Below, one piece after another: positions 2,333-56,167 of a DNA stretch of 64,000 bases. The translations under genes were made by a program, and so were the position numbers. The stretch is taken from positions 87,174 to 151,173 of the forward strand of contig JAWQFM010000002.1 in the NCBI GenBank assembly GCA_033442325.1, written 5' to 3'. Position 1 is the stretch's first letter; each line of letters starts with the position of its first letter. The DNA comes from Salpingoeca rosetta (taxonomy: Eukaryota; Protista; Choanoflagellata). The notes under the pieces are model-generated. The model was not told the origin of the DNA. It was given only the letters and a program-made list of their open reading frames with translations, and made no database searches.

Positions 2333-3626
2333 GTGCATGTGGCTTATGCGCGTGTAATTGCACAAGAAGCGTGCAGCTTTTTGCACATTGGAACAGCCAT
2401 GCAATGTTCATCATTTGCATCACAGTGCCAACTTAAACGCAAGCACACACGCATTCTCATCAATGCCTTTTGCCACATCCAACACGTCCCTCCCCCAACG
2501 AAACTGTCCCGTTCAGATGGAGGACTTGGCTGCCATCAACCGCACGCTGCAGGGTGCATATGCCCGCTCCCGGATGGCGTCACAGTCGTTCACGGCCGAT
2601 CGGTTTGCATCATCGTCCGAGACGGATGTTTATTCCACCGAGAGCAACAGTCCTACCGCCGATGCAGCTTCGGTATTGTTGTTTGAAGTTGTTATTGTTT
2701 ACGTTGTTGTTTGGGTTGGTTTTGTTGCGGTTGGCGTCGCCGTTTTCATGGAAGCGTGAATGCTCATCAACACACACACATGCACGTGCACGTGTCGCGT
2801 GTGTAGGTGTATGGAGGCGACTTGTATGGTGGACTCGTTCGAGAAACAGGTTTTCAGCTGTCTCCCGCGCATGCTGATCCAGTCTCCTTTGACGTCGTTT
2901 GTCATCCGTCCACGGCAGCATACACATTTGGTTCGTCAATGCTGTGCACGCACCAGTGATGGTGCCACGCTCATGCACACATACACGCACACACGCATAC
3001 ACACGCATACATGTTGCATGCTGACCTCACCGCATACTGTTCCGTGTGCGTGTGTGTGTGTGTGTGTGCGTGTGTGTGTGTGTATCACTGCTGCAACAGG
3101 GCTGCAGGGTCCATGCCGCCTTGTGCTCTCTGAGAACGACGTGCGCATCCAGCACATGTCAACACGACGCCAGCACGCGTGGCCCTGGCACAGCATCGCC
3201 AGGTCAGATAATACGCACATAATCGCCCCCGTGTGATTGGCCCCTGTTTGTGTATGTGCATGTGTGAAAGCTGTATCTCACGCAGATGCGTTGTGATGGT
3301 CAAACTGCATCACTGTCAGGCTTGTGCGAGACGAGGCGTACGTGAGCTTACTCGTGGACGGTGTTGACGGGTAAGCGCACTTTGCGTGTGTGTGTTTGTG
3401 TGTGTGTGTGCACTTGTCTTGTTTTGATCTTGCTCGTCTGTGTTGCATGTGTGCATGCACGCGTGCCTGCCGTTGTGTCAAGTCTGGCAGTTGTTGGGTC
3501 GCGCGTTCTTGTTCCAGCCTCATGCCGCCATGTTCATGATCTCTATCGTATAGACGGGAACTCGAGCTGCTCATGTATTCGGACGAAGCCGATCGAATCG
3601 CAAAGACTTTCAGCCTCTTCGTCTAA
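1..3626 (+). CDS. Coiled-coil protein with C-terminal IRS/DOK-type PTB-like domain (multi-exon, 5' end outside window)
   Basis: GT-AG exons approx. 352-456, 772-847, 990-1053, 1240-1770, 1938-2009, 2128-2190, 2517-2671, 2807-2930, 3100-3202, 3320-3370, 3554-3626. Early exons are heptad-rich (ELRVKMLREQLAQTEKQLKQ; EMLKLREDNLRLQDVVTALKRVQ). The last exons join in phase to FDVVCHPSTAAYTFGLQGPCRLVLSENDVRIQ...WPWHSIARLVRDEAYVSLLVDGVDGRELELLMYSDEADRIAKTFSLFV*, which resembles the DOK/FRS2 PTB pattern. Confidence 0.65.
2256..2331 (+). repeat. (CT)n microsatellite, intronic
   Basis: Directly visible. One of many intronic simple repeats; (GT)n, (CA)n, (GTCT)n and (CACT)n tracts occur throughout. Confidence 0.95.
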
Positions 3627-4354
3627 CACATGCATGTCTGCAACTGTTGCATGTTCGTGCACAAGCGCTGTTGAACGCACGAGGGTTTTTTCTTCCTGTG
3701 AATGGTAAACCCTTCGTTGTGAAAGTTGTTTCCTTGGCGTTATCATGGGTCGTCACACCTGTTCTTGGGGCACCTGTTACACAGTCGCACGCTGATCCTT
3801 GAGCGTGTGCGCCTCGTTCCTTCACTGTTGTCCCTGGCTTCTGGACCTCACACTTCTTTCTGGCTGTTGTCATTGACCCTCGTTTCTATTTGTGGTGGCT
3901 TTGCACTTGTTCATTTCTTGCCTCTTGTGATCCTTGAAGGATGCACGCTGTTGATGTTCAACCCACGACTACACGACCTCTTTCGTCTCCAAAGCAGAAA
4001 ATACACACAAAACACAGACACTCGCACACGTCTCTATGTGTGCTCCTTTGTAGTGTGTCTGCGTCTGTATCTGTATCTGTGTGTGTGTGTGTGTCTGTCT
4101 GTCTGTGTCTGTGTGTGTTGGGGTATGCGTTGTGGTATCAGTTGGTGCGTAATTGACTTCGAATTGTGTACTTGGTCACGCGATGCAGAAGGAAGCAACC
4201 ATAGATGGCAATAAACCATGATCAACATGTCTCGAGCAATACACAACACACACACCCCAATACATAACACACAACACAGCACACTCACACACACACACAC
4301 ACACAAACACGTCCAAAGTGCCACTGAGCATATCATGCAAGCCGCACGTCAAGC

Positions 4355-7300
4355 TCAAAAGTACACGCGGGCAATGTGCTGCATAATCTCGTGCAGCAGC
4401 TCTGCTGTCTCCTTGTCGTCGTCGTTGTCCAAGAGCTCAGCCCGCTTGTCTGCCAGCCACTGCAGCAGGATCGCCTTGCCCTCAAGCAACCGGAGCATGG
4501 CAGATCGGACAGTACCGGGCGAGAACACGTAGGAAAGCAGCAGCGACTCCCAATCCGAAGCAACCTTCGCACGAATGTATCCCCTTGGGTTGGCATGCAG
4601 CACACGGCGAGGGCGCTCCCGAAGCCGCGTGAAATAAGACGAGTGAAGCATCTTGCCGGGTTTGCACATGAGACCAAAGTCCACGATGCAGCCGTTGGGC
4701 AGGATGTTGTGCGAGCGGATGTCGCAGTGACAGAGATTGTTCTTCGACAAAATAAGGAGGTATCCAGCAGCGGTTGTAAGCGCCTCCTTGTCCTTGATGC
4801 CCGTGCCTCTTTCGGTCGGCGCTAGATGGGGAAAGGCAAGAACAAGACGCAAATCAAGGAAACGGCGTGACCGCTCGAGCACTTCCACCTTTTCGTCCGG
4901 ATAGAGCAGTTGCCAGGCCTGCAGCTCCCTGTCAGCCTCCTCTTCCCTGACACCCAGCTCTTCCAATTCCGTTTCCGCGGAATAGTAAGAGTTAATTCTC
5001 CTAATTGCAGCCACCTCTTTCCTGGCAGCCTCCACTGTTCTGTAGACCTTCCGAGAACGATAAACGCCCTGGCCGCTACACACCTTCAACATCTTGCCGT
5101 TCACCATTGCAACCGCTGCCGTGTCTTCGCCGCCTTTGTAGACGCACATCTCGTATCTCGTGGCAACTTTGGCAGACCTGGCCCTGGCTCTTTTGGTGAC
5201 TGCATGCTGACGCTGCTCAGCCTTGCTGCTGCCTGCTGTGTCAGTCTTGGTGTCTGCTTTGGTGCTTGGTGTTCTTGTTGGGGCTGTTGTGGTGGCGGAA
5301 CGAGATGGTGTTGTGGATGGTGTTGTGGATGGTGTTTTGGATGGTGTTTTGGATGGTGTTGTGGATGTTGTTGTGGCTTTGCCTGCCTTGGGTTGCTGAC
5401 GCCGTCGCCGTGCGGTCGCGGCTGTGGTCGGGCGGGTTTTCTTCACTGTGCGGCTACGCCCGGTACCCGGTCTTGCTGGCGTGCTCGAAGCGGCGCGACT
5501 TGCGGCTTGACGTGTCTTCGCTTGCTGGCGCTGGCGCTGCTCCTTTGTGGTTGCTGGTGCGGAGTGGTCGGTTTTCTTCACGACCGCGCTAGCAGGCCCG
5601 CCGCTGCGTGTTTGTGACACTCTGGAGGCGCCGCGAGTTGCCGGTCTGCGTGTCTTTGCCTGGTGGCCCCGACCCTGCTGCGGTGCGGGTTTGGCTTTGG
5701 CCTTGCCCTTGGCTTCGGCTTTGGCTTCGGCTTTGGCATTGGCTTTGACTTTGACTTTGGTTTTGGCCTTGGCTGTCTTTGCGCTGCACTGCGTGTCGAC
5801 AGCCTGCTGTTGTGGCGTGGACTCTGCCTGGGCTTCCTCCTCCTTGTCGCTGGTGCTGGTGGTGCTGGTGGTTGGGCAAGCAGGCGGGTCCGAGGCGCTG
5901 TCAGTTGTGGCTGTCGTCTCAGGCGCAAGTGCTGGGGTTGAGGGAGAAGGGTCCTCTCGTCCCTGTGTGTGTGTGTGTGTGATTGCGGAGGTGGGTGGCA
6001 TCGTTGATGTTTGAACACAAGAAAGAAGGTGCACGAGGGGTGTGTCTTGATGGCAGAATACCAAACCAAGACAGTAACAGAGCAAGAGGGCAAGAGAGCT
6101 GGAGGGCTCAACATCACGAATGCAACGGCTACCTGGGCAATGGCGGAAATCATCTCGTAATGCGCCATGTGCTCTTCGTCGAGCAGCCACTCAATGACAT
6201 GCCCAAGCCTGTTCAACTGAATCCCGCGACCAAGGTAGCAATGTGAGCGCAGCGTCCAACGAGAATTACCAGTAGACAAGGCAACAGCCAGTCGACAGCA
6301 ACTGCACAGATGCACGTGCTGGATCATGTGTGCCACATACACCCACACACACTCACACCCACACACACTTACAGACACACACACACAGACACACAAAAAC
6401 ACAATGCACATACAAACACACAATGCAAACACCCTCCTTCACTGTTCGCACATGTGGTGGCAACTCACGTGGATGTCGCCAAGTTTTGTGTAAAGGACAC
6501 TGGGAAAGGCCTCGCCACCGTGCATCTCCTCACCCAGTGTGCACGCGTACACGGACACTGTATTCGCGCAGACGGTGATGGCGAAGGGGAACAAGTATCC
6601 GTTCAACCGACGCCACTCCGGGCCTGCGGACTTGATGGCCTTTGCTGCGTACTCCAGCACCTGCGCCTTGGCAGCATCCTGCGCCCGCTTGCCGTTGCGG
6701 GTCTTGAGCTCAATCACCAGCGGGTAGCAGTCATAGTTTGAGACCAGACGCACAGCATAGTCAACACGAACAGCGGGGTCAGCTTCAAACGACGCTTTGC
6801 TCTTGACGTCTACCGCTGCTCCAGCACACGCCTCGACCAGGGGCCCGTAAATGCGGTCGTTGAACCGCCTTTCCCGTGACGGAACGGAAAAATAAAAGTC
6901 TGCAGTGCAGTGGGCGTACACAGGGCAGCGTTGTTGTGAGAGACAGAGAGATACTGTCCTTCAGGCTTCTTAGGAGGAGCACACACATATGCTGTGCAAG
7001 CAAACACATACGCACAAATACGCAGACGCAGGCAGGCAGGCAGGCACGCACACACACATGCCACGTTCTCTCATGGACAGCACGCTCACATGTACACATG
7101 AACATAGCAAGCAAGCGCATCCTCCACAGTGACCCTACCTGGCGTTTCGTCCCTGCGCTCAAACACTTGAAACCATTCGTTGTGCAGATGCCAGTCAGGG
7201 CAGAGAAGCTTGGCAGAGAATGGCTGCGCATAGACTGTTCTGTGGGCGACATCCACGTCCTTCTTCTTCTCCGTGGCAGCGTGGCGGGGCTCCACGCTCG

Positions 7301-7411
7301 ACTGCAAATCTGTATGAACCACACGAACAGCCAGAATGAGTTCCAACAATGCGCCAGACGGAGTGCTCAAGCACAGCGGTGCTCGCAGCAACAGCACTGA
7401 TGTACACGCAC

Positions 7412-7486
<75 letters not shown>

Positions 7487-8250
7487 CACACACACGCACG
7501 CACGCACACGAAACAACGGTGCATGTGTTCACTCAGCCACATATGTGAGACACACCGAGCAACAAGGGCAAGGTCAACGCACCTTGTCGAAACTGCCCCA
7601 ACTCTTTGCACTCGGCCGGTCCTTTGCGTGCGATGTCGTCAAGACGACGAAGGAAGCTTTCCGCCTCGTCGAAGGTCACCTGCGTCTCTTCCGTGTCCAC
7701 CACTCTGTGAATTTCCTGCAGCAGGGTCTGGATGTCTTCAGTGAAGGACAGCTTCATCATGTCTTCCACGTATCTCGTTGTCTCATATTGGTTGCGGACA
7801 TACTCAAGTGGAAGGGTTTCAATCCCATTCTTGGTTGCAATTGTCCGGATCTGCTCGGCGAAGGTGTGGTATTGTGAATCGCCGTCTTGCTTCTTGTCGT
7901 CAAAGAGCTTCTTGTACTCTTTCTGTGCTGCTTGCAGATATGCGCGCGCAAGAACACCAACCTGAACGGAGGGGTGGGGGAAGAAGTGGGTTGAACAAGA
8001 TATACAGCAGGTGCCCACAAGTGAGAAGGAGAGGTAATCTTGCTGTGGCGCATGTTGGCGGCATTTGTGGGCAGATGCCACTTTCCAAGTGTACACACAC
8101 ACACACACACACACACGCCGTGTGTTGCATTCAACAAGTCCAAACGTCACCCACCTCGCCTGCCGGCACGGTTGTGTAGATCACAGGAACATCATCTTCG
8201 GCTGTGTCGGCCATGTACGTCTCCTCCGTGCTCTCAAAGGACGAGTTGCG
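4355..8250 (-). CDS. Multi-domain protein: helical N-terminal region + PD-(D/E)XK restriction-endonuclease-like domain + T/A/K-rich linker + atypical protein kinase (Crinkler/CR-effector-like)
   Basis: Phase-compatible exons 8250-8155, 7961-7583, 7396-7139, 6899-6469, 6216-6133, 5962-4355. The true start is unresolved (possible ATG at 8646). Exon 6899-6469 encodes RVDYAV...PLVIELK...AQVLEY (D..ExK plus QxxxY). The last exon encodes KVY..AARKEV, HCDIRSHNIL, DFG and DWESLLLS. Confidence 0.75.
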
Positions 8251-8763
8251 CTTGTTGCGTGATGTATGCGTGTGTTGCATGTGTTTGCGCATTGTATGTG
8301 CGTGTGTGTGCGTGTGTGTGTGCGTGTTGCACGTGTGCGTATTGTGTGCATGTGCGTGCGTGCGTAGTGTGTGTGTGCGTAACATTAGCATTGTGTGAAA
8401 CAAAAGCGCGGGTTTGTCCAGCAGCCTAGGCCTAGCAGAGAGCAGGCACATGGTTCAACCACTTCACCATGTCAGAAGCCACATGGAGTGACGCCCTTGT
8501 CAGTTCAGTGTCTCCATCCCCTTCCCCCTCAACCGCCTTTCCGCCTCCTCTTTCAAGGAGGTCTAGCAGGCAGGCAAAGGCAGGTCTCAGGGTCTCACCT
8601 CGTTTGGGATCTTGAAGTCCCACACAGGCACACTCCACACAGGCATGATATTCGTTCGACGGGTTCCTCCTCGTGCGTGTGGTTTGAAAAAACCCCGGGA
8701 AAGGCGGATGCGAAAAATGGTAATGATGCACATAGAATTCATCACCACGGACAGTGCAACAAC

Positions 8764-23620
<14,857 letters not shown>

Positions 23621-23890: not shown

Positions 23891-35023
<11,133 letters not shown>

Positions 35024-35352: not shown

Positions 35353-35985
35353 NNNNNNNNNNNNNNNNNNNNNNNNNNNNNNNNNNNNNNNNNNNNNNNN
35401 NNNNNNNNNNNNNNNNNNNNNNNNNNNNNNNNNNNNNNNNNNNNNNNNNNNNNNNNNNNNNNNNNNNNNNNNNNNNNNNNNNNNNNNNNNNNNNNNNNNN
35501 NNNNNNNNNNNNNNNNNNNNNNNNNNNNNNNNNNNNNNNNNNNNNNNNNNNNNNNNNNNNNNNNNNNNNNNNNNNNNNNNNNNNNNNNNNNNNNNNNNNN
35601 NNNNNNNNNNNNNNNNNNNNNNNNNNNNNNNNNNNNNNNNNNNNNNNNNNNNNNNNNNNNNNNNNNNNNNNNNNNNNNNNNNNNNNNNNNNNNNNNNNNN
35701 NNNNNNNNNNNNNNNNNNNNNNNNNNNNNNNNNNNNNNNNNNNNNNNNNNNNNNNNNNNNNNNNNNNNNNNNNNNNNNNNNNNNNNNNNNNNNNNNNNNN
35801 NNNNNNNNNNNNNNNNNNNNNNNNNNNNNNNNNNNNNNNNNNNNNNNNNNNNNNNNNNNNNNNNNNNNNNNNNNNNNNNNNNNNNNNNNNNNNNNNNNNN
35901 NNNNNNNNNNNNNNNNNNNNNNNNNNNNNNNNNNNNNNNNNNNNNNNNNNNNNNNNNNNNNNNNNNNNNNNNNNNNNNNNNNNNN
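35353..35985. other. Assembly gap (N)
   Basis: N run. Confidence 1.
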
Positions 35986-37127: not shown

Positions 37128-38786
37128 TCACTTCTTCTTGAAGAAGGAGCTGAAGACGGAGCTGTCCTTTGCCTTTTTGCGCATGACACCACGGGACGCT
37201 GTGGTGTAAGTCGAAGGCGCCGAGGCGCGCTGGTTGCAGTGCATCTGCATCATGGCCGTGGCCTTGTACCTGCCAGCGCCATTGTAGGCCGCGGGCGTGC
37301 TGAAGTTGCCCTGGCACTCGTCCATGTCCGTGAGCAGCTGCTGGATGTAATCGTCCGCGGCCGCCTCCGTGCGCATGGCTGCGCTGGTCGTGGTCAGGTT
37401 TGCCTGTGCCGACGCAAAGTCGCCGCGACGCGCTGCCTGCAGCGCTTCCCGCATGGCGTTGGCGGCCTCCACGCGCCGCACCTGCCGACGCACGTTCTTG
37501 TCGGGCTGAGCCTTGGGCGGCGCCTGTGCCGGCCGCGTCAGCGTCAGCGAAGCCGTCTCCTTCTCAAACGCTGCGCTGATTACGTTCACATACTCCAGCA
37601 CGGCCGCAGCATACGTCACGTGCGGCACGCCCACATCCTCTGGGCGCGGCTTCTTCACATCATCATCACACTTGGCCGCTGTCTCTGTGTCCTTCTCCTC
37701 CTGCTGCTCTTCCTCCTTCTCTGCGTCTTTCTCTGATGCTGGCTTGACGTCATCGCCATCGCCCTCGTCGTCCTCATCCTCGTCGTCGTCGTTGTTGTGA
37801 ACAGCAGCGGCGGTGGTGGTGGTGGTGGTGGTGGTGCGGTCGTTCTTGTCTGGCTGCGGCAACTCGAGTGGCGGGATGTCCAGCTCCACCAGGAGGTCCC
37901 GCTGCTCCTCGGCCTGGATGTCGCCCAGCTGGATCTCCGCCCGCGTGCGATCCGAGGACACCGTGTGCTGGCGCTGCGTGTGCAGGGTGGTGATCTTGGC
38001 GCCGTTCTGCGTGGTGATGGTGACCTTGACGTTCTGGCCGACGACGGAGAGCAGGCCGCCCAGGCAGTCGCCAAAGGACTCCGGGATGGTGTCGTTGTTC
38101 TCAATGTAGTAGTACATGCCGTTGCCCACCTCGGACAGGTCCTTGAGCAGCTCCTCCTCGTGGTTGCTGCCGTAGCCAAAGGTGTAGAGGGAGTAGCTTG
38201 GGTTGTCGCCCATGAGCTGGCGCGTGGCGGTGATGAGGTTGGGCCCGCGCACGCCCTCGTTGGCGATGCCGTCTGTCATGAGCAGCACAGAGGACACGCT
38301 GGCTGCAGACCGCTCGCGGCCCTGCATCATCTCAATCCCCTTGAAGAGCCCGCCGCTGAGGTTGGTGCAGCGCTGCGCGCGCAGCGTGGACAGGGCGGCC
38401 GTCGCCGTGCGCTTGCCCTCAGCGTCCATGCGTGTGAGCGGGAAGGCAACGCTCACGTCGGAGTGGTACACGACGAGGCCCATGTGGTCCGTTTGCGACA
38501 GGTTCTTGATGAGAAACTCCAGCGTGGCCTTGGCAAGGTCCAGCTTGGAGCCGGACATGGATCCGCTCACGTCAATCACGGCCACAATGTCCACCGCCCC
38601 GCGCGCGGCTTCCTCGCCCTGGTACTCTGGCGCCTGCACATGGAACACGCTGTTGATCTTGTGCCGCTGTCCACGCGAGTAAGCCACAAACTCGCTTGTG
38701 CTCTCAAACGTCAGCCGCGCCGCGACAGAGCTGTTGGGAGCTTGTGCAGTGGCTGGCTGCTGCCCTTGCTGATCCTGGTCTGCCAT
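37128..38786 (-). CDS. Intronless von Willebrand factor A (VWA) domain protein with intact MIDAS motif and a Vwaint/WAV3-like C-terminal region
   Basis: Single ORF from MADQDQQG (38786). Motifs DIVAVIDVSGSM, TNLSGGL, VLLMTDG, YTFGYG.NH and FGDCLGGLLSVV. The C-terminus MHCNQRAS..YTT resembles plant RING-VWA proteins. Confidence 0.88.
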   Translation of the reverse strand: MADQDQQGQQPATAQAPNSSVAARLTFESTSEFVAYSRGQRHKINSVFHVQAPEYQGEEAARGAVDIVAVIDVSGSMSGSKLDLAKATLEFLIKNLSQTDHMGLVVYHSDVSVAFPLTRMDAEGKRTATAALSTLRAQRCTNLSGGLFKGIEMMQGRERSAASVSSVLLMTDGIANEGVRGPNLITATRQLMGDNPSYSLYTFGYGSNHEEELLKDLSEVGNGMYYYIENNDTIPESFGDCLGGLLSVVGQNVKVTITTQNGAKITTLHTQRQHTVSSDRTRAEIQLGDIQAEEQRDLLVELDIPPLELPQPDKNDRTTTTTTTTAAAVHNNDDDEDEDDEGDGDDVKPASEKDAEKEEEQQEEKDTETAAKCDDDVKKPRPEDVGVPHVTYAAAVLEYVNVISAAFEKETASLTLTRPAQAPPKAQPDKNVRRQVRRVEAANAMREALQAARRGDFASAQANLTTTSAAMRTEAAADDYIQQLLTDMDECQGNFSTPAAYNGAGRYKATAMMQMHCNQRASAPSTYTTASRGVMRKKAKDSSVFSSFFKKK

Positions 38787-39365
38787 CTTGCTCTTGTCTT
38801 GTCTTGGTTGTTCCTTGTCGGTGGTGTTGTTCCTTGTTGTTCTTCTTCTTGCTTGTCTTGTTCTCTTGTTGTTGTTCTTCTTCTTGCCCGTCTTGTTCCT
38901 TCGTGGTTTTGCTTGGTTGCTCGTCTTGGTCGATGTGAAAATGAACACGGCACTGGGTGCGATCGCACTTCTGCCTGTCACCCCTTGCTGACAGCTAAGG
39001 CAGGCATTCTGCTGACTGCTGATTCCTGCCGACACCGCACGCTCGCACTGGTTTTGGGTGCAAACCAGTCGTGCAGGCGGTCCTTCTTGCTTCTTGCTTC
39101 TTGCTTCTTTGCCTTGTTGTTTGTTCTGTGCCAAAAATACATGCAAGCGAACGATGAGTCACCCACCAAGTGGGCGTGGTTTCTGCACAGTCAGCAAACC
39201 ACCAAACCAAAAAATTACGACTGAATTCAGTGGGATCATCACACACAAACAAAACACACACAAACAACACGCAGCACAACAAGCAAGAAGCAAGCAAAAA
39301 GAAGACACAGCAAAGGAGTAAGTGATTTGATGTGAAGACGACTGACTGGCTGGCTGGTCCTGACG

Positions 39366-51113: not shown

Positions 51114-52340
51114 GCAGACAGGCAGACAGACAGACAGAGCGCACGAGAGAAGGAGGGAGCAGAGAAGTGGAAATGAGTCCCTGCCAATGTTGCTAAAAAC
51201 GCTCGTGACACCAGCGATGGGGTTTCTGTAAAGCCATCACACACACAACACACACACACACAGACGCACACATTGACGCACAGAGCTGAAAGCGTGGGCT
51301 GCAGCCATGACTTCCAGTGCCACGCCGTCTGCCTTTGCCTGCTGCTCGGCCCGCTTCCGCTGTTGGTGATGCAGCACACCAGAAGCACGCGTCTCGTGAA
51401 TAAACAGAACCACACCCCTCGTTAGCCAAAGACCACTGCCTGATAGCACGCCCACCACACACCACACTACAGCAAGCACAGCAAGCACAGCAAGCACAGC
51501 GGCAAGCCTAGCAAACAAGTTCATCAAACAACAACAACCACCACCACCACCAGCAGCAGCAGCAACCACCACCAGCAACATGCAGTATGATGCAGAGAGG
51601 TTGCTCCATGTTACCTCTTGCTTTGCCTTTTGTTCAGCAGACTTCTCCTGCCCAGGCAGCTTCACCCACGGTGTGGGCGCCACCTCGGGCTCCCTTGCGT
51701 CAAACGTCTTGACATCCTTTGCGGTGAGCTGGTTCTCCAGGAAGGTTGGCTTGGCCAGCTTCTTGTCGGAGAGCAAGTCATCCAGCGAAGGCAGCGCCTC
51801 TGCTTTGCTCTTCTTCGCTGCCAGTTCGCCACCATCGTCTCCTTCATCGCTCCCATCGTCTCCCTTCTTGGTGCGTTTGCGATCACCGTCCTCGTCATCG
51901 GTATCCGAATCGTCAGAGTCTAAAGGGCAGAGGCCGGGAGGAATGAGAAGGAGGATGGAGTTGGGTTGAGTGTGAGATGAGCAGGCAGTCCGAGGTTGAG
52001 CGTGATTGAGGAGAATTCTTTGTGTTGAACCGCGCCCGTGACCTATCTGACCGTTGGGGAGCGGCAGCCCACGTAAACACGCAGCAACACACACACACGC
52101 ACACGCTACCAAACGTGCATGCACACGCGCGCACACACGCACACACGCACACACACGCATGCGCACACGACACGCGTGTACACCTGTGAGATCGATGTCG
52201 TCTGCGCTCGCAAAGAAGGAGAACGCCTTCTTGGGCTTGCGATCTTCTTCTTCTTCTTCTGTTTCTTCTTGTTCTTGTTTGCTGCGCTGGTGCGCGTTAT
52301 CCTCGACACGACGCGTTGCTGTTGGCGGAGAAGTGGGCAT
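50491..52340 (-). CDS. C1orf52/DUF4660-like acidic-basic nuclear protein (multi-exon; last exon tentative)
   Basis: Motifs KKAFSFFAS..DSDDSD, EALPSLDDLL..KPTFLENQL and KEKRKRDIGQ. Exons approx. 52340-52184, 51919-51614, an exon within about 51390-51281, 51046-50905 and 50607-50491. Confidence 0.55.
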
Positions 52341-52411
52341 GGCGCCGTTGCTGCTTGCTTTGCTGGCTGCTTGCTTTGCTGGCTGCTTGCTGTGCTGGTG
52401 GTGTGCCCTGC

Positions 52412-52950
<539 letters not shown>

Positions 52951-53054: not shown

Positions 53055-53358
53055 CGCCCTGACGCCCGCTTGCCTCAGGACTGCAAATTTTTGGAGGACG
53101 CATGTGTGTGCGTGTTGTGTGCACGTTTGCCTTTTTGTTTGCCTTGAGTGTGTGTGTTTGTGTGTGCGGTGACAGGTGGAAAACAAAACACACGCACCCT
53201 TCCTGAGCCCCGCCACCACCTTCCTCATTGATTGTTGCGCACACTCCACTCTCTCGACTACCAATCAACGACCAACCAATACCAACACCCCACCACTGCC
53301 CGTTGGTTCCCTTCCCTTCCACCACACCGGCTGCTTATCAACACCACCAACTGAGAGG

Positions 53359-56167
53359 ATGGCTGTGTTGAGTGCCCGCCTCTTGCACAGTGGAGGGCTG
53401 TCCGTGGCCCGCGTGCCTGCGGCTGTGGGTGCCATGCTGCGCGGCAGACATGCGGCAGCGCAGCACCGCGCCGCCCGCGTGTTTGCCCGTGCCCTCTCCG
53501 TGTCCACAGACGAGGACACGCAGGGCCACCAGGACGTGGTGGACTCCTGGCGCGTCAACATCTCCGGGGACCCCAACAAGTTTGTTGGACCACGACCAGA
53601 GTCGTGGTGGACAGGCAAGCCGCCAGTGCACGGAACATGTCCCGGCGTGAACAGCGACGGCATCATCCGCTCCCTGCCCCAGCCGGACCTGAGCAACGTC
53701 ACGCGGCAGCAGCTGCGCGACTACTTTGACAACTGCTGGACCATGACCGAGGTGCTCTTTTCTGCGCTGCAGACAGAGGAGCCCTTCTACCGCCCGCCCT
53801 ACCACAACCTGCGCCACCCAAAGATCTTCTACTACGCCCACCCGGCCTCCGTCTACGTGAACAAGTGCCGCGTCGCCGGCCTCATCAGCAAGCCCATCAA
53901 CGAGTACTACGAGCACATCTTCGAGACGGGCGTCGACGAGATGCAGTGGGACGACCTGAGCAAGAACGACATGCGCTGGCCCACCGTGGACGAGGTCAAG
54001 GCCTACCGCCAGGAGGTCTACAACACCGTCGTCGACATCATCGAGAACCACCCGGCCTTTGAGACGATTGACCAGCTCGAGGCATCCCCCTTCTGGGCCG
54101 TGGTCATGGGCACCGAGCACGAGAAGATCCACCTGGAGACGAGCAGCGTGCTCATGCGCGAGCTGCCGCTCGAGCTTGTTCGCCCGCCAGAGCACTTCCC
54201 CGCCATCCACCCAAGCGCACGCGAACACGGCGTCACGCCCGACCAGGAGCCCGTCGCGGGCAAGGACTACCCTGTCAACCAGTTTATCGAGGTGGAGGCC
54301 GGCTCTGTGAAGCTGGGCAAGCCCCGCGACTTCCCCTCCTACGGCTGGGACAACGAGTACGGCGAGAAGCACATGAACGTCAAGTCCTTCAAGGCTACCA
54401 AGTACCTCATCAGCAACGGCGAATTCCTCCAGTTTGTCAAGAGGTGCGCGTGTGCCTCTGTGTGTGTGTTTGGGTGCGTTTGGGTGCAACTTCGACAAAT
54501 GAGAGTGAGGGCTTGTGCTCGTATGTGTGAACGTGCATGTGTGAACCCTTCTTTTTACCACTGCTTGTTCAGCTTCTCACGACATCCTCCCCTCCTTTCT
54601 TCAAACACGCACACGCACACACACACACAAACGCAACGCGTGCAGTGGCGGATACCTGGACGAGAACGTGTGGGAGCCCGAGGGCTGGAAGTGGCGCTGC
54701 TTCCGCAACGTGAAATGGCCGACATTCTGGGTGCCCACCGGCCCCTCTGGCCTGCACCAGTACCGTCTGCGCACCGCATTTGAGGTTGTCGACATGCCGT
54801 GGTCGTGGCCCGCCAACGTCAACTACCACGAGGCCAAGGCGTTTGCCAACTGGAAGAGCGACATGGAAGGGCGCGACCGCACGCAGGGGTACCGCATCAT
54901 GACGGAGGCCGAGCACCACCGCATCCGCGACGACTACATGTCCGACGAGAGCCTCGGCGTCGCGCGCGACCCGGGCATGGTGGCAGATGGACACGAGATG
55001 GCAGACAAGTACGGCTTCAACCTCAACCTGGCACACGGCTCTGAGTCGCCCGTCGACGCGCTCAAACCAACCAGCCTGGGCTTCCACGACGTGTTTGGCA
55101 GCGTGTGGAACTGGTGCGAGGACCACATCAGCGCGCTGCCCAACTTCAAGATCCACCCATACTACAACGACTTCACCCTGCCCTGCTTTGACGGCCAGCA
55201 CAACCTCATTCTCGGCGGGTCGTTTATCTCGTGCGGTGACGAGGCGAGCTCCTTCGCCCGCTTCCACTTCCGCCCCCACTTCTTCCAGCACGCGGGCTTC
55301 CGCCTCGTCCTGCCCAACCAGACCGACCCTGCCCTGGTCACGTCGTGCATGGACAACCAGGGGCCCTACGTCGGCACGAACCCCTTCCGCAGCAGCCGCC
55401 GCGATGAGACGGAGCGCAAGTACCAGGCCGAGGAGGTCCTGCGCCAGTACGTCCACCTCCACTACGCCGACGACGCCAACGTCCCCGAGGCCGCCCGCGG
55501 ATACACAGACAAGGTGACTCAGCTGCTTGTGGACGCCGCCCGCGAGCACGGCGTGGCCACGGACCGCGTGCTCGACATTGGCTGCGGCGTTGGCGGCACC
55601 ACGTTTGCCCTTGCGCGCGCGTTTGAGAGCGTGCTTGGCGTGGACATCAGCGCGTCGTTTATTGATGCGGCACAGCAGCTGAAGGAGGAGGGATCCCTGC
55701 CCTACTTTATCCGCGAGGAGGGCGACATCAAGGAGGAGGCCGTCGTCGGTCTTCCGCAAGGCGTGGACCCAGCCCGCGTCGAGTTCAAGCAGATGGACGC
55801 CATGTGCATTCCACCCGACACAGGCTCCTTCAGCGCAGTCCTCGCTGCAAACGTGCTGGACAGACTGTCCTCCCCCGGCACGCTGCTGTCGCGGCTGGGC
55901 GGTGCGCGCGGCCTTGTGCGCCCCGGCGGAATCCTGGTCCTGTCGTCCCCATACACGTGGATGGAGCAGTACACGCCCAAGGACCTGTGGATTGGCGGGC
56001 ACGAGACCCCCGAGGGTAACGTGCGTTCGCTGGACGGCCTCAAGGCGGCCCTTGGCGAGAACTTTGAGCTCCTGCGCACAACACAGGTGCCGCTCGCCAT
56101 CCGCGAGCACGCGCGCAAGTTTGAGTACGTCATCTCGGAGGCGACCGTGTGGCGCCACCGCTCATGA
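53359..56167 (+). CDS. ovoA: Ovothiol biosynthesis protein OvoA (5-histidylcysteine sulfoxide synthase + SAM methyltransferase)
   Basis: Two exons, 53359-54443 and 54646-56167. DinB-like motifs LRHPKIFYYAH and FETGVDEMQWDD; iron motif HEKIHLE; FGE-sulfatase motifs GWDNEYG and FRPHFFQHAGFR; methyltransferase motifs LDIGCGVGG, ANVLDRL, SSPYTW and IREHARKFE. Confidence 0.95.

Follow-up and report, generated by a model that had tools for sequence, protein, structure and literature searches.

Structure of the PTSG_11025 locus

The 64,000-nucleotide (nt) stretch of Salpingoeca rosetta DNA analysed here (contig JAWQFM010000002.1, positions 87,174 to 151,173; hereafter the window) carries a single copy of PTSG_11025, a minus-strand gene of seven exons (8646-8599, 8250-8155, 7961-7583, 7309-7139, 6899-6469, 6216-6133 and 5962-4355) separated by GT-AG introns, which together form one frame of 938 amino acids (aa). 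The product is letter-identical to P0010 (XP_004987949.1 / EGD81080.1 / F2USH1), the protein whose locus is given as PTSG_11025, with six introns, in Table S1 of PMC7971027. Its database name is 'serine/threonine protein kinase' only, and the nuclease part is unnamed there.

An initial annotation of this DNA had proposed a spliced nuclease-kinase fusion, joining 6899-6469 through 6216-6133 to 5962-4355 by phase-compatible GT-AG introns. Both joins (6469|6216 and 6133|5962) are indeed GT-AG and phase 0, and the three exons form an open frame of 707 codons that matches XP_004987949, while the remaining two frames carry 10 and 20 stops. It was also right that no single open reading frame (ORF) shows the link, the nuclease motifs lying within the stop-to-stop ORF 6439-6960 and the kinase motifs within a separate one, 4355-6190. 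Its range began at 8250 and so missed the first exon (8646-8599). The joined frame aligns without gaps to the annotated paralogues over both nuclease junctions, with the exception that P0011 uses a different site at the acceptor after exon 6, and in the genomic paralogue L001, which ends before the nuclease-linker join, all five covered splice sites fall at positions identical to those of PTSG_11025; the splicing is therefore more than a chance pattern. Judged from these sequences, the fusion is real but was not hidden, being an existing annotated gene model in which only the nuclease lacked a name, and its splicing is supported by that annotation and by the paralogue alignment. Nine sequencing runs presumed to be RNA contained 0.53-0.58 of the words and three others 0.77-0.82, where spliced mRNA would be expected to give 0.60-0.62; these shares are not counted as evidence.

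Exon 1 (8599-8646, minus strand like all that follow) encodes aa 1-16 from a start codon at 8646, in identity with P0010, and exon 2 (8155-8250) encodes aa 17-48, an acidic N-terminal tail of low model confidence whose AAG acceptor is the least certain splice site of the gene. Exon 3 (7583-7961; aa 49-174) holds an all-helical header, and exon 4 (7139-7309; aa 175-231, again of low model confidence) the end of that header and a QPFSAxLLCxxWHxH segment ahead of the nuclease; the splice sites of both are matched in L001. The predicted restriction-endonuclease core of the PD-(D/E)XK type occupies exon 5 (6469-6899; aa 232-375), and two helices encoded by exon 6 (6133-6216; aa 376-403) close the domain. 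Exon 7 is divided between a disordered, basic linker rich in T, A, K and R (5192-5962; aa 404-660) and an atypical kinase (4355-5191; aa 661-938 and the stop codon). Intron 6 (6132-5963, minus strand, 170 nt) is stop-free in the exon-6 frame; if retained, it would read through to a stop at 5578 and yield a nuclease product without the kinase.

Predicted nuclease and kinase domains

An AlphaFold2 model of PTSG_11025 built from a 17-sequence alignment has a mean predicted local distance difference test score (pLDDT) of 55 and a predicted template modelling score of 0.41, and the packing of the domains is therefore undefined. Within it, aa 241-402 are modelled as an alpha/beta domain at pLDDT 73-93, apart from aa 351-370 (64-69), with a helix, three strands, a helix and further strands; D278 lies on strand 2 and the ExK motif at the end of strand 3. 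The alpha-beta-beta-beta-alpha-beta core of the PD-(D/E)XK superfamily is thus present in this prediction. Compared with 48,161 solved chains, the model matched BpuSI best (Z 12.1, root-mean-square deviation (rmsd) 3.1, 141 residues aligned), followed by DrdV (Z 10.2, rmsd 2.7, 125 aligned), and HsdR (3h1t) was also matched (Z 8.9, rmsd 4.5, 126 aligned); other top entries were a mitoribosomal chain (Z 9.2), a kinase (8.8) and TT1808 (8.7).

The motifs RVDY (aa 276), IELK (aa 294) and AQVLEY (aa 310) contribute to a set of six residues that is intact in PTSG_11025: E241 (6873), D278 (6762), E295 (6711), K297 (6705), Q311 (6663) and Y315 (6651). The ESM Atlas neighbours of aa 190-403 include DUF7924 (template modelling (TM) score 0.73), HSDR_N (0.61), McrBC, PDDEXK_12 and fungal-kinase-associated clusters, all below the bar for naming a family, and BpuSI_N appears among the feature matches of exon 5 alone (0.94). 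Pfam gave no match above threshold for PTSG_11025 searched exon by exon, nor for eight close paralogues. The modelled fold and intact residues bear out the proposal of a PD-(D/E)XK restriction-endonuclease domain with QxxxY, which PTSG_11025 is accordingly predicted to carry.

The second domain spans aa 661-935 (∼275 aa), of which aa 687-935 are modelled as a kinase-like region. Kinases fill most of the further rows in the comparison with solved chains (Z 7.1-8.8) and are the only matches of the full model in Foldseek, where none from the Protein Data Bank (PDB; best E 1.8e-3) and one from a viral library reached E ≤ 0.001; profile searches of PDB sequences returned only weak kinase matches (best E 0.38 and 0.022). 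The motifs LKVC (aa 695), RELQ (748), HCDIRSHN (815; 4729-4706), VDFG (830) and SDWES (872) are in place, as are K696 (5086), E749 (4927), D831 of DFG (4681), E852 of an ERP motif (4618) and D873 (4555). No GxGxxG loop was seen in the PTSG_11025 kinase, and the helix-C glutamate is confined to the 10 close members of the family described below. The divergent kinase of the initial annotation is thus predicted to be an atypical kinase fold, bilobal and with K, HxDxxxxN, D(FG) and the helix-F D. The literal APE is absent as had been stated; what probably stands in for it is E-R-(H)-P (E852), a motif retained in 14 of 14 kinase-bearing members. An N-lobe insertion of ∼37 aa before helix C (5074-4942, minus strand) is common only to PTSG_11025 and P0001, and looks like a duplicated helix C.

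Header and linker

The helical header of unrecognised family that had been described is seen as an all-helical stretch at aa 46-191 of the alignment-based model, at low to medium confidence; no family was found for it and its structural matches were generic helical ones only, the header having been folded only as part of the full model. It is the most variable of the ordered domains, with 10 close paralogues averaging 55% identity over it. A pattern scan for LFLAK- and HVLV-type Crinkler motifs found none in 16 family proteins, and P0010 lacks a hydrophobic, signal-like stretch at its N-terminus.

The linker, put earlier at roughly 270 aa, measures 257 aa, is 56% T/A/K/R with a net charge of +32 and is disordered over aa 408-649 in the model. 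It includes short tandem repeats at 5304-5375 and 5691-5774 and the motif RRRRQQPK at aa 588 (5410-5387), for which a role in nucleic-acid binding or as a nuclear localization signal had been suggested. Across 14 members, however, linker length ranges from 68 to 342 aa and net charge from -22 to +32, and a run of at least four basic residues or a similar motif occurs in only five of 16 proteins. Since length, charge and basic runs are not conserved, we reject such a role as a feature of the family.

A dispersed and domain-shuffled family

The family comprises 16 named proteins including PTSG_11025, all from S. rosetta and spread over 13 contigs, together with four unnamed fragments; 11 of the 16 are close relatives, four are distant (about 20-26% identity) and one consists of the header only. 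Searches yielded 8 of 6,447, 11 of 7,993 and 12 of 7,997 scored candidates, and 12 sequences among 1.84 billion representatives at E ≤ 0.001, with no named homologue outside S. rosetta in these protein searches and no relative in other choanoflagellates, a eukaryote protein set being among the sources searched. None of 37 pattern matches in viral contigs was confirmed, and phage genomes searched with the distant paralogue P0015 gave no match. A metagenome scan confirmed two of 57 cases, which are one sequence filed twice (L001 and L002). This is a frameshifted copy, with an N-terminus closest to P0008 and a nuclease 96% like that of P0004, and is either a pseudogene or an assembly error. Between its positions 1193 and 2622 there are frameshifts in the header exon and a short duplication in exon 4.

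In the ten close full-length members, a set that leaves out the kinase-less P0011, mean identity is 77% for the nuclease, 69% for the kinase, 55% for the header and 49% for the linker. The header, nuclease and kinase trees reject one another in six of six cross-tests (approximately unbiased test, p of 0.017 or lower), and this conflict shows recombination between family members. Natural chimeras include PTSG_03118, PTSG_04927, PTSG_06682 and PTSG_11187. In P0006, for example, the header is 94% like that of P0003, but the nuclease and kinase are 96% like those of P0007. The expanded, fast-evolving family that had been anticipated is therefore present, diversified and shuffled by domain. Eight of the family genes have 4-7 introns each, and this, with the spread of 16 genes over 13 contigs, implies that they dispersed at the DNA level.

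Fifteen members have a nuclease region. Ten of them, two of which have about 27% identity, retain all six nuclease residues (E/D/E/K/Q/Y); in P0001, P0011, P0005, P0017 and P0019 the set is altered. The kinase is defective in P0005 (DFG to GFG) and missing from P0011, both of which also have an altered nuclease. The 15 members therefore divide into 10 with both domains intact, three with an altered nuclease and an intact kinase, two with both defective, and none with an intact nuclease and a defective kinase. P0020 is a truncated member. Variable tandem KKETAALQDKSDD repeats lie close to the C-terminus of P0004, P0006, P0007, P0008 and P0009, and in P0009 the linker and kinase N-lobe are duplicated.

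Expression in published data

Fifteen of the 16 named family genes could be looked up in published expression tables (P0019 was not mapped to a gene). PTSG_11025 itself is covered by 968 sense reads and one antisense read (Fairclough 2013, PMC4054682). Its level, in fragments per kilobase of transcript per million mapped reads (FPKM), is 13-17 across four samples from colonies, 6.4 in a single swimmer sample and 1.4-4.4 across three thecate samples, and it is listed among 480 colony-upregulated genes (PMC4054682). Five of the 15 family genes appear in that list, where 0.6 would be expected (p = 2.5e-4; data of PMC4054682), but as paralogues they do not count as independent, and reads may be shared between close copies. 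Relative to thecate cells, every one of the 15 is higher in colonies; relative to swimmers, this is so for only eight of 15 (PMC4054682 data), so that the firm pattern is low expression in thecate cells. A later study found PTSG_11025 lower in thecate cells than in swimmers (log2 change -3.0, adjusted p 5e-20; Gahan 2025, PMC12572184), and in its data, read here without a genome-wide baseline, 12 of the 13 family genes looked up are higher in swimmers, the exception being the kinase-less PTSG_08312. The 2013 kinase table does not include PTSG_11025, while two of its paralogues were discarded there and two were filed as CAMK and TKL (PMC4054682).

Likeness to known systems

The SPOK proteins (Podospora Spok1-4, Fusarium FuSpok), which the initial annotation did not name, are the closest functional parallel that we found, on grounds of analogy. 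SPOK3 has, in order, an N-terminal domain, a PD-(D/E)XK nuclease with QxxxY (best match Vibrio vulnificus HsdR), an unstructured region and an ELK-like kinase (PMC6660238). PTSG_11025 resembles this arrangement of an N-domain, an HsdR-like nuclease with QxxxY, an unstructured part and an atypical kinase within one intracellular protein, and both families are multicopy, dispersed and chimeric, with nuclease-dead variants (PMC6660238, PMC12693581). In SPOK the nuclease does the killing, and protection, in cis as well as in trans, comes from the kinase: in SPOK3, K240A abolishes killing, while D667A or truncation of the kinase makes the protein toxic (PMC6660238). SPOK1 kills via DNA, in both Escherichia coli and yeast (PMC9972908), and SPOK homologues, whose architecture is described as widespread, are toxic during vegetative growth (PMC12693581). 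The S. rosetta genes differ in being intron-rich and non-fungal, and on present tests PTSG_11025 does not appear to be a member of the SPOK family.

A second parallel is the CR (Crinkler-RHS-type) class, such as Phytophthora CRN8, in which a header, a restriction endonuclease and a kinase are likewise combined, with header variation and recombination (PMC5289972). According to that review, this combination makes up about one-sixth of C-termini, toxicity comes from the endonuclease, headers may be alpha-helical and lack a signal peptide, and CR proteins are present in free-living eukaryotes as well (PMC5289972). The Crinkler-type assignment of the initial annotation stands as to this architecture, which alone places PTSG_11025 in the class as defined in PMC5289972. 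The Pfam scans brought up no profile for the CR endonuclease or CR kinase families or for a named header family. The assignment fails for Crinklers in the strict sense, to which, as far as sequence and model can tell, PTSG_11025 does not belong: its header is helical and not ubiquitin-like with LxLFLAK, none of the 16 proteins has the CRN motifs, and its host is free-living with no known delivery.

FunK1 / Pkinase_fungal (PF17667) proteins with an N-terminal DUF6826, and DUF7924 proteins, are the nearest Atlas neighbours of aa 190-403 (features 0.90 and 0.87; structure TM 0.73 and 0.56; both under the naming bar), and P0015 matches PF17667 at E 8e-4 but at 18.6 bits, below the cut-off of 24.1. 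P0010 differs in having no Pfam match above threshold and a compact kinase of about 275 aa. With the Type IIG and Type I restriction endonucleases BpuSI, DrdV and HsdR, PTSG_11025 shares the fold and catalytic layout, but at 12-15% identity and without methyltransferase, specificity or helicase parts; its nuclease is joined to a kinase, and the gene is eukaryotic and spliced.

Proposed function and alternatives

Because the nuclease is the most conserved domain, its full residue set is kept in 10 of 15 members, the domain order is SPOK-like and the domain trees conflict, we tentatively favour, with somewhat less than even confidence, a reading of PTSG_11025 as a SPOK-like one-protein poison-antidote, i.e. 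a self-restrained DNA toxin. By analogy with SPOK, the nuclease would cut DNA, the kinase would keep it harmless in the cells that produce it, the header would be the specificity part, and recombination between paralogues would create new specificities. The victims would be cells that acquire the protein but do not carry the gene matching it (meiotic products, fusion partners or bridge-linked neighbours), or cells that lose control by the kinase. We think it unlikely that, beyond this, each variant kills those cells sharing its carrier's cytoplasm or descent that lack the matching kinase, which would make the family a gene drive in sexual reproduction or a means of policing kin in bridge-linked colonies.

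The lack of any member with an intact nuclease and a defective kinase fits restraint by the kinase, although it is suggestive only. Several results weigh against a poison-antidote. This asymmetry falls short of significance (Fisher p = 0.095), and it depends on gene models (P0011 is perhaps incomplete) and on members that are not independent (P0001 and P0011 share one change). The ratio of non-synonymous to synonymous substitution rates, 0.57 on one nuclease-exon pair, indicates mild constraint only. The SPOK cysteine cluster C-x3-C-x13-C-x5-H-x7-H is present in none of the 16 proteins even as a relaxed pattern, and database searches, made without direct comparison to SPOK sequences, detected no sequence homology to SPOK. 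A single-sequence AlphaFold model of exon 5 alone (pLDDT 58) matched unrelated alpha/beta folds and no nuclease, so that the endonuclease core asserted by the initial annotation is borne out at aa 241-402 of the alignment-based model, which supersedes it, but not in this one. Cell death caused by CRN8 survived disruption of its kinase, and in the CR class kinases are seen as regulators and not as an antidote (PMC5289972). Finally, that a whole family is co-regulated by cell type, in cultures growing vegetatively, is compatible with selfish drive but no less so with a function under host control.

Such a function could be host defence, with an intracellular nuclease acting on viral, mobile-element or prey DNA (or in infection-triggered suicide) and the kinase serving as sensor or activator instead of antidote. 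We regard this as rather improbable, though it would account for family-wide control by cell type (levels above those of thecate cells in colonies for 15 of 15 genes and in swimmers for 12 of 13, with five of 15 in the colony list) and for an expansion confined to one lineage with domain shuffling, and the CR review proposes that some versions act on invasive intracellular DNA (PMC5289972). However, no sensor domain was recognised, and PADLOC models matched nothing in P0010 and at most three of 17 sequences per model. Thecate cells feed too, so feeding does not explain the expression pattern. That pattern, seen in two studies, would also suit a domesticated regulator, i.e. a kinase equipped with a DNA-binding module of nuclease fold, cutting little if at all and active in the programme that sets swimmers and colonies apart from thecate cells, as would the five of 15 nuclease-altered members, three of them kinase-intact and expressed, and the basic linker of PTSG_11025. 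We are distinctly doubtful of it, given that 10 of 15 members keep the full catalytic set across deep divergence and that the nuclease is more conserved than the kinase; mosaicism, the truncated P0020 and the frameshifted L001 are unlike a core regulator, and other choanoflagellates, with a eukaryote protein set among the sources, yielded no relative.

We see little prospect for an exported Crinkler-type effector, delivered by its helical header against competitors, predators or prey, even though the CR architecture, helical signal-less headers and free-living carriers are all known (PMC5289972). Headers have been swapped between paralogues, but CRN motifs are found in none of the 16 proteins, P0010 has no signal-like stretch, and expression is modest, at 13-17 FPKM at its peak. 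Moreover, we know of no delivery route for a free-living bacterivore. Slimmest of all is the case for an endonuclease that belongs to a transposon and spreads the locus encoding it. DNA-level dispersal of the genes of 16 intron-bearing proteins over 13 contigs would agree with it, and CR nucleases have been linked to transposons (PMC5289972). Yet PTSG_11025 is single-copy in the window and sits beside RNase PH and RNA polymerase genes, with no NTPase or transposase partner seen. Among the repeats listed for 3000-10500 (20 of 45 direct families and 25 of 1410 inverted pairs) there are only microsatellites and linker repeats and no transposon termini, and L001 has no shared flank beyond 8026.

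Pathogen effectors and fungal meiotic drivers already provide examples of the nuclease-kinase combination. We found no paper on a choanoflagellate nuclease-kinase family, although the 2016 survey (Zhang et al.) or its supplement may list these genes, and the accessible text of PMC12957317, PMC13412767 and PMC9758233 added nothing on it. A testable function is now proposed for a colony-upregulated gene without useful annotation. If PTSG_11025 does encode a poison-antidote, genetic conflict or self/non-self killing could be tested directly in the organism that serves as the main model for how animal multicellularity arose, and the question raised by SPOK, of how one protein can be both poison and antidote, could be studied in a further, independent system where nuclease-dead and chimeric variants occur naturally.

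Other features of the window

The neighbours of PTSG_11025 are an RNase PH-domain gene (10670-11143, plus strand) and the gene for the largest subunit of an RNA polymerase (12840-14357, minus strand). Assembly gaps at 14617-14803, 18055-18154, 33924-34023 and 35353-35985 total 1,020 N. Open frames of 611 aa (24340-26172, plus strand) and 481 aa (51240-52682, minus strand) had no Pfam match at E 0.01, and an uninterrupted frame of 676 aa at 37131-39158 (minus strand), with a GC content above 60%, has a VWA domain. At 53173-56164 (plus strand), two long overlapping ORFs, apparently intron-poor within this intron-rich genome, carry DinB_2, FGE-sulfatase and methyltransferase domains, a layout that we take to be that of an ovothiol/ergothioneine-type synthase.

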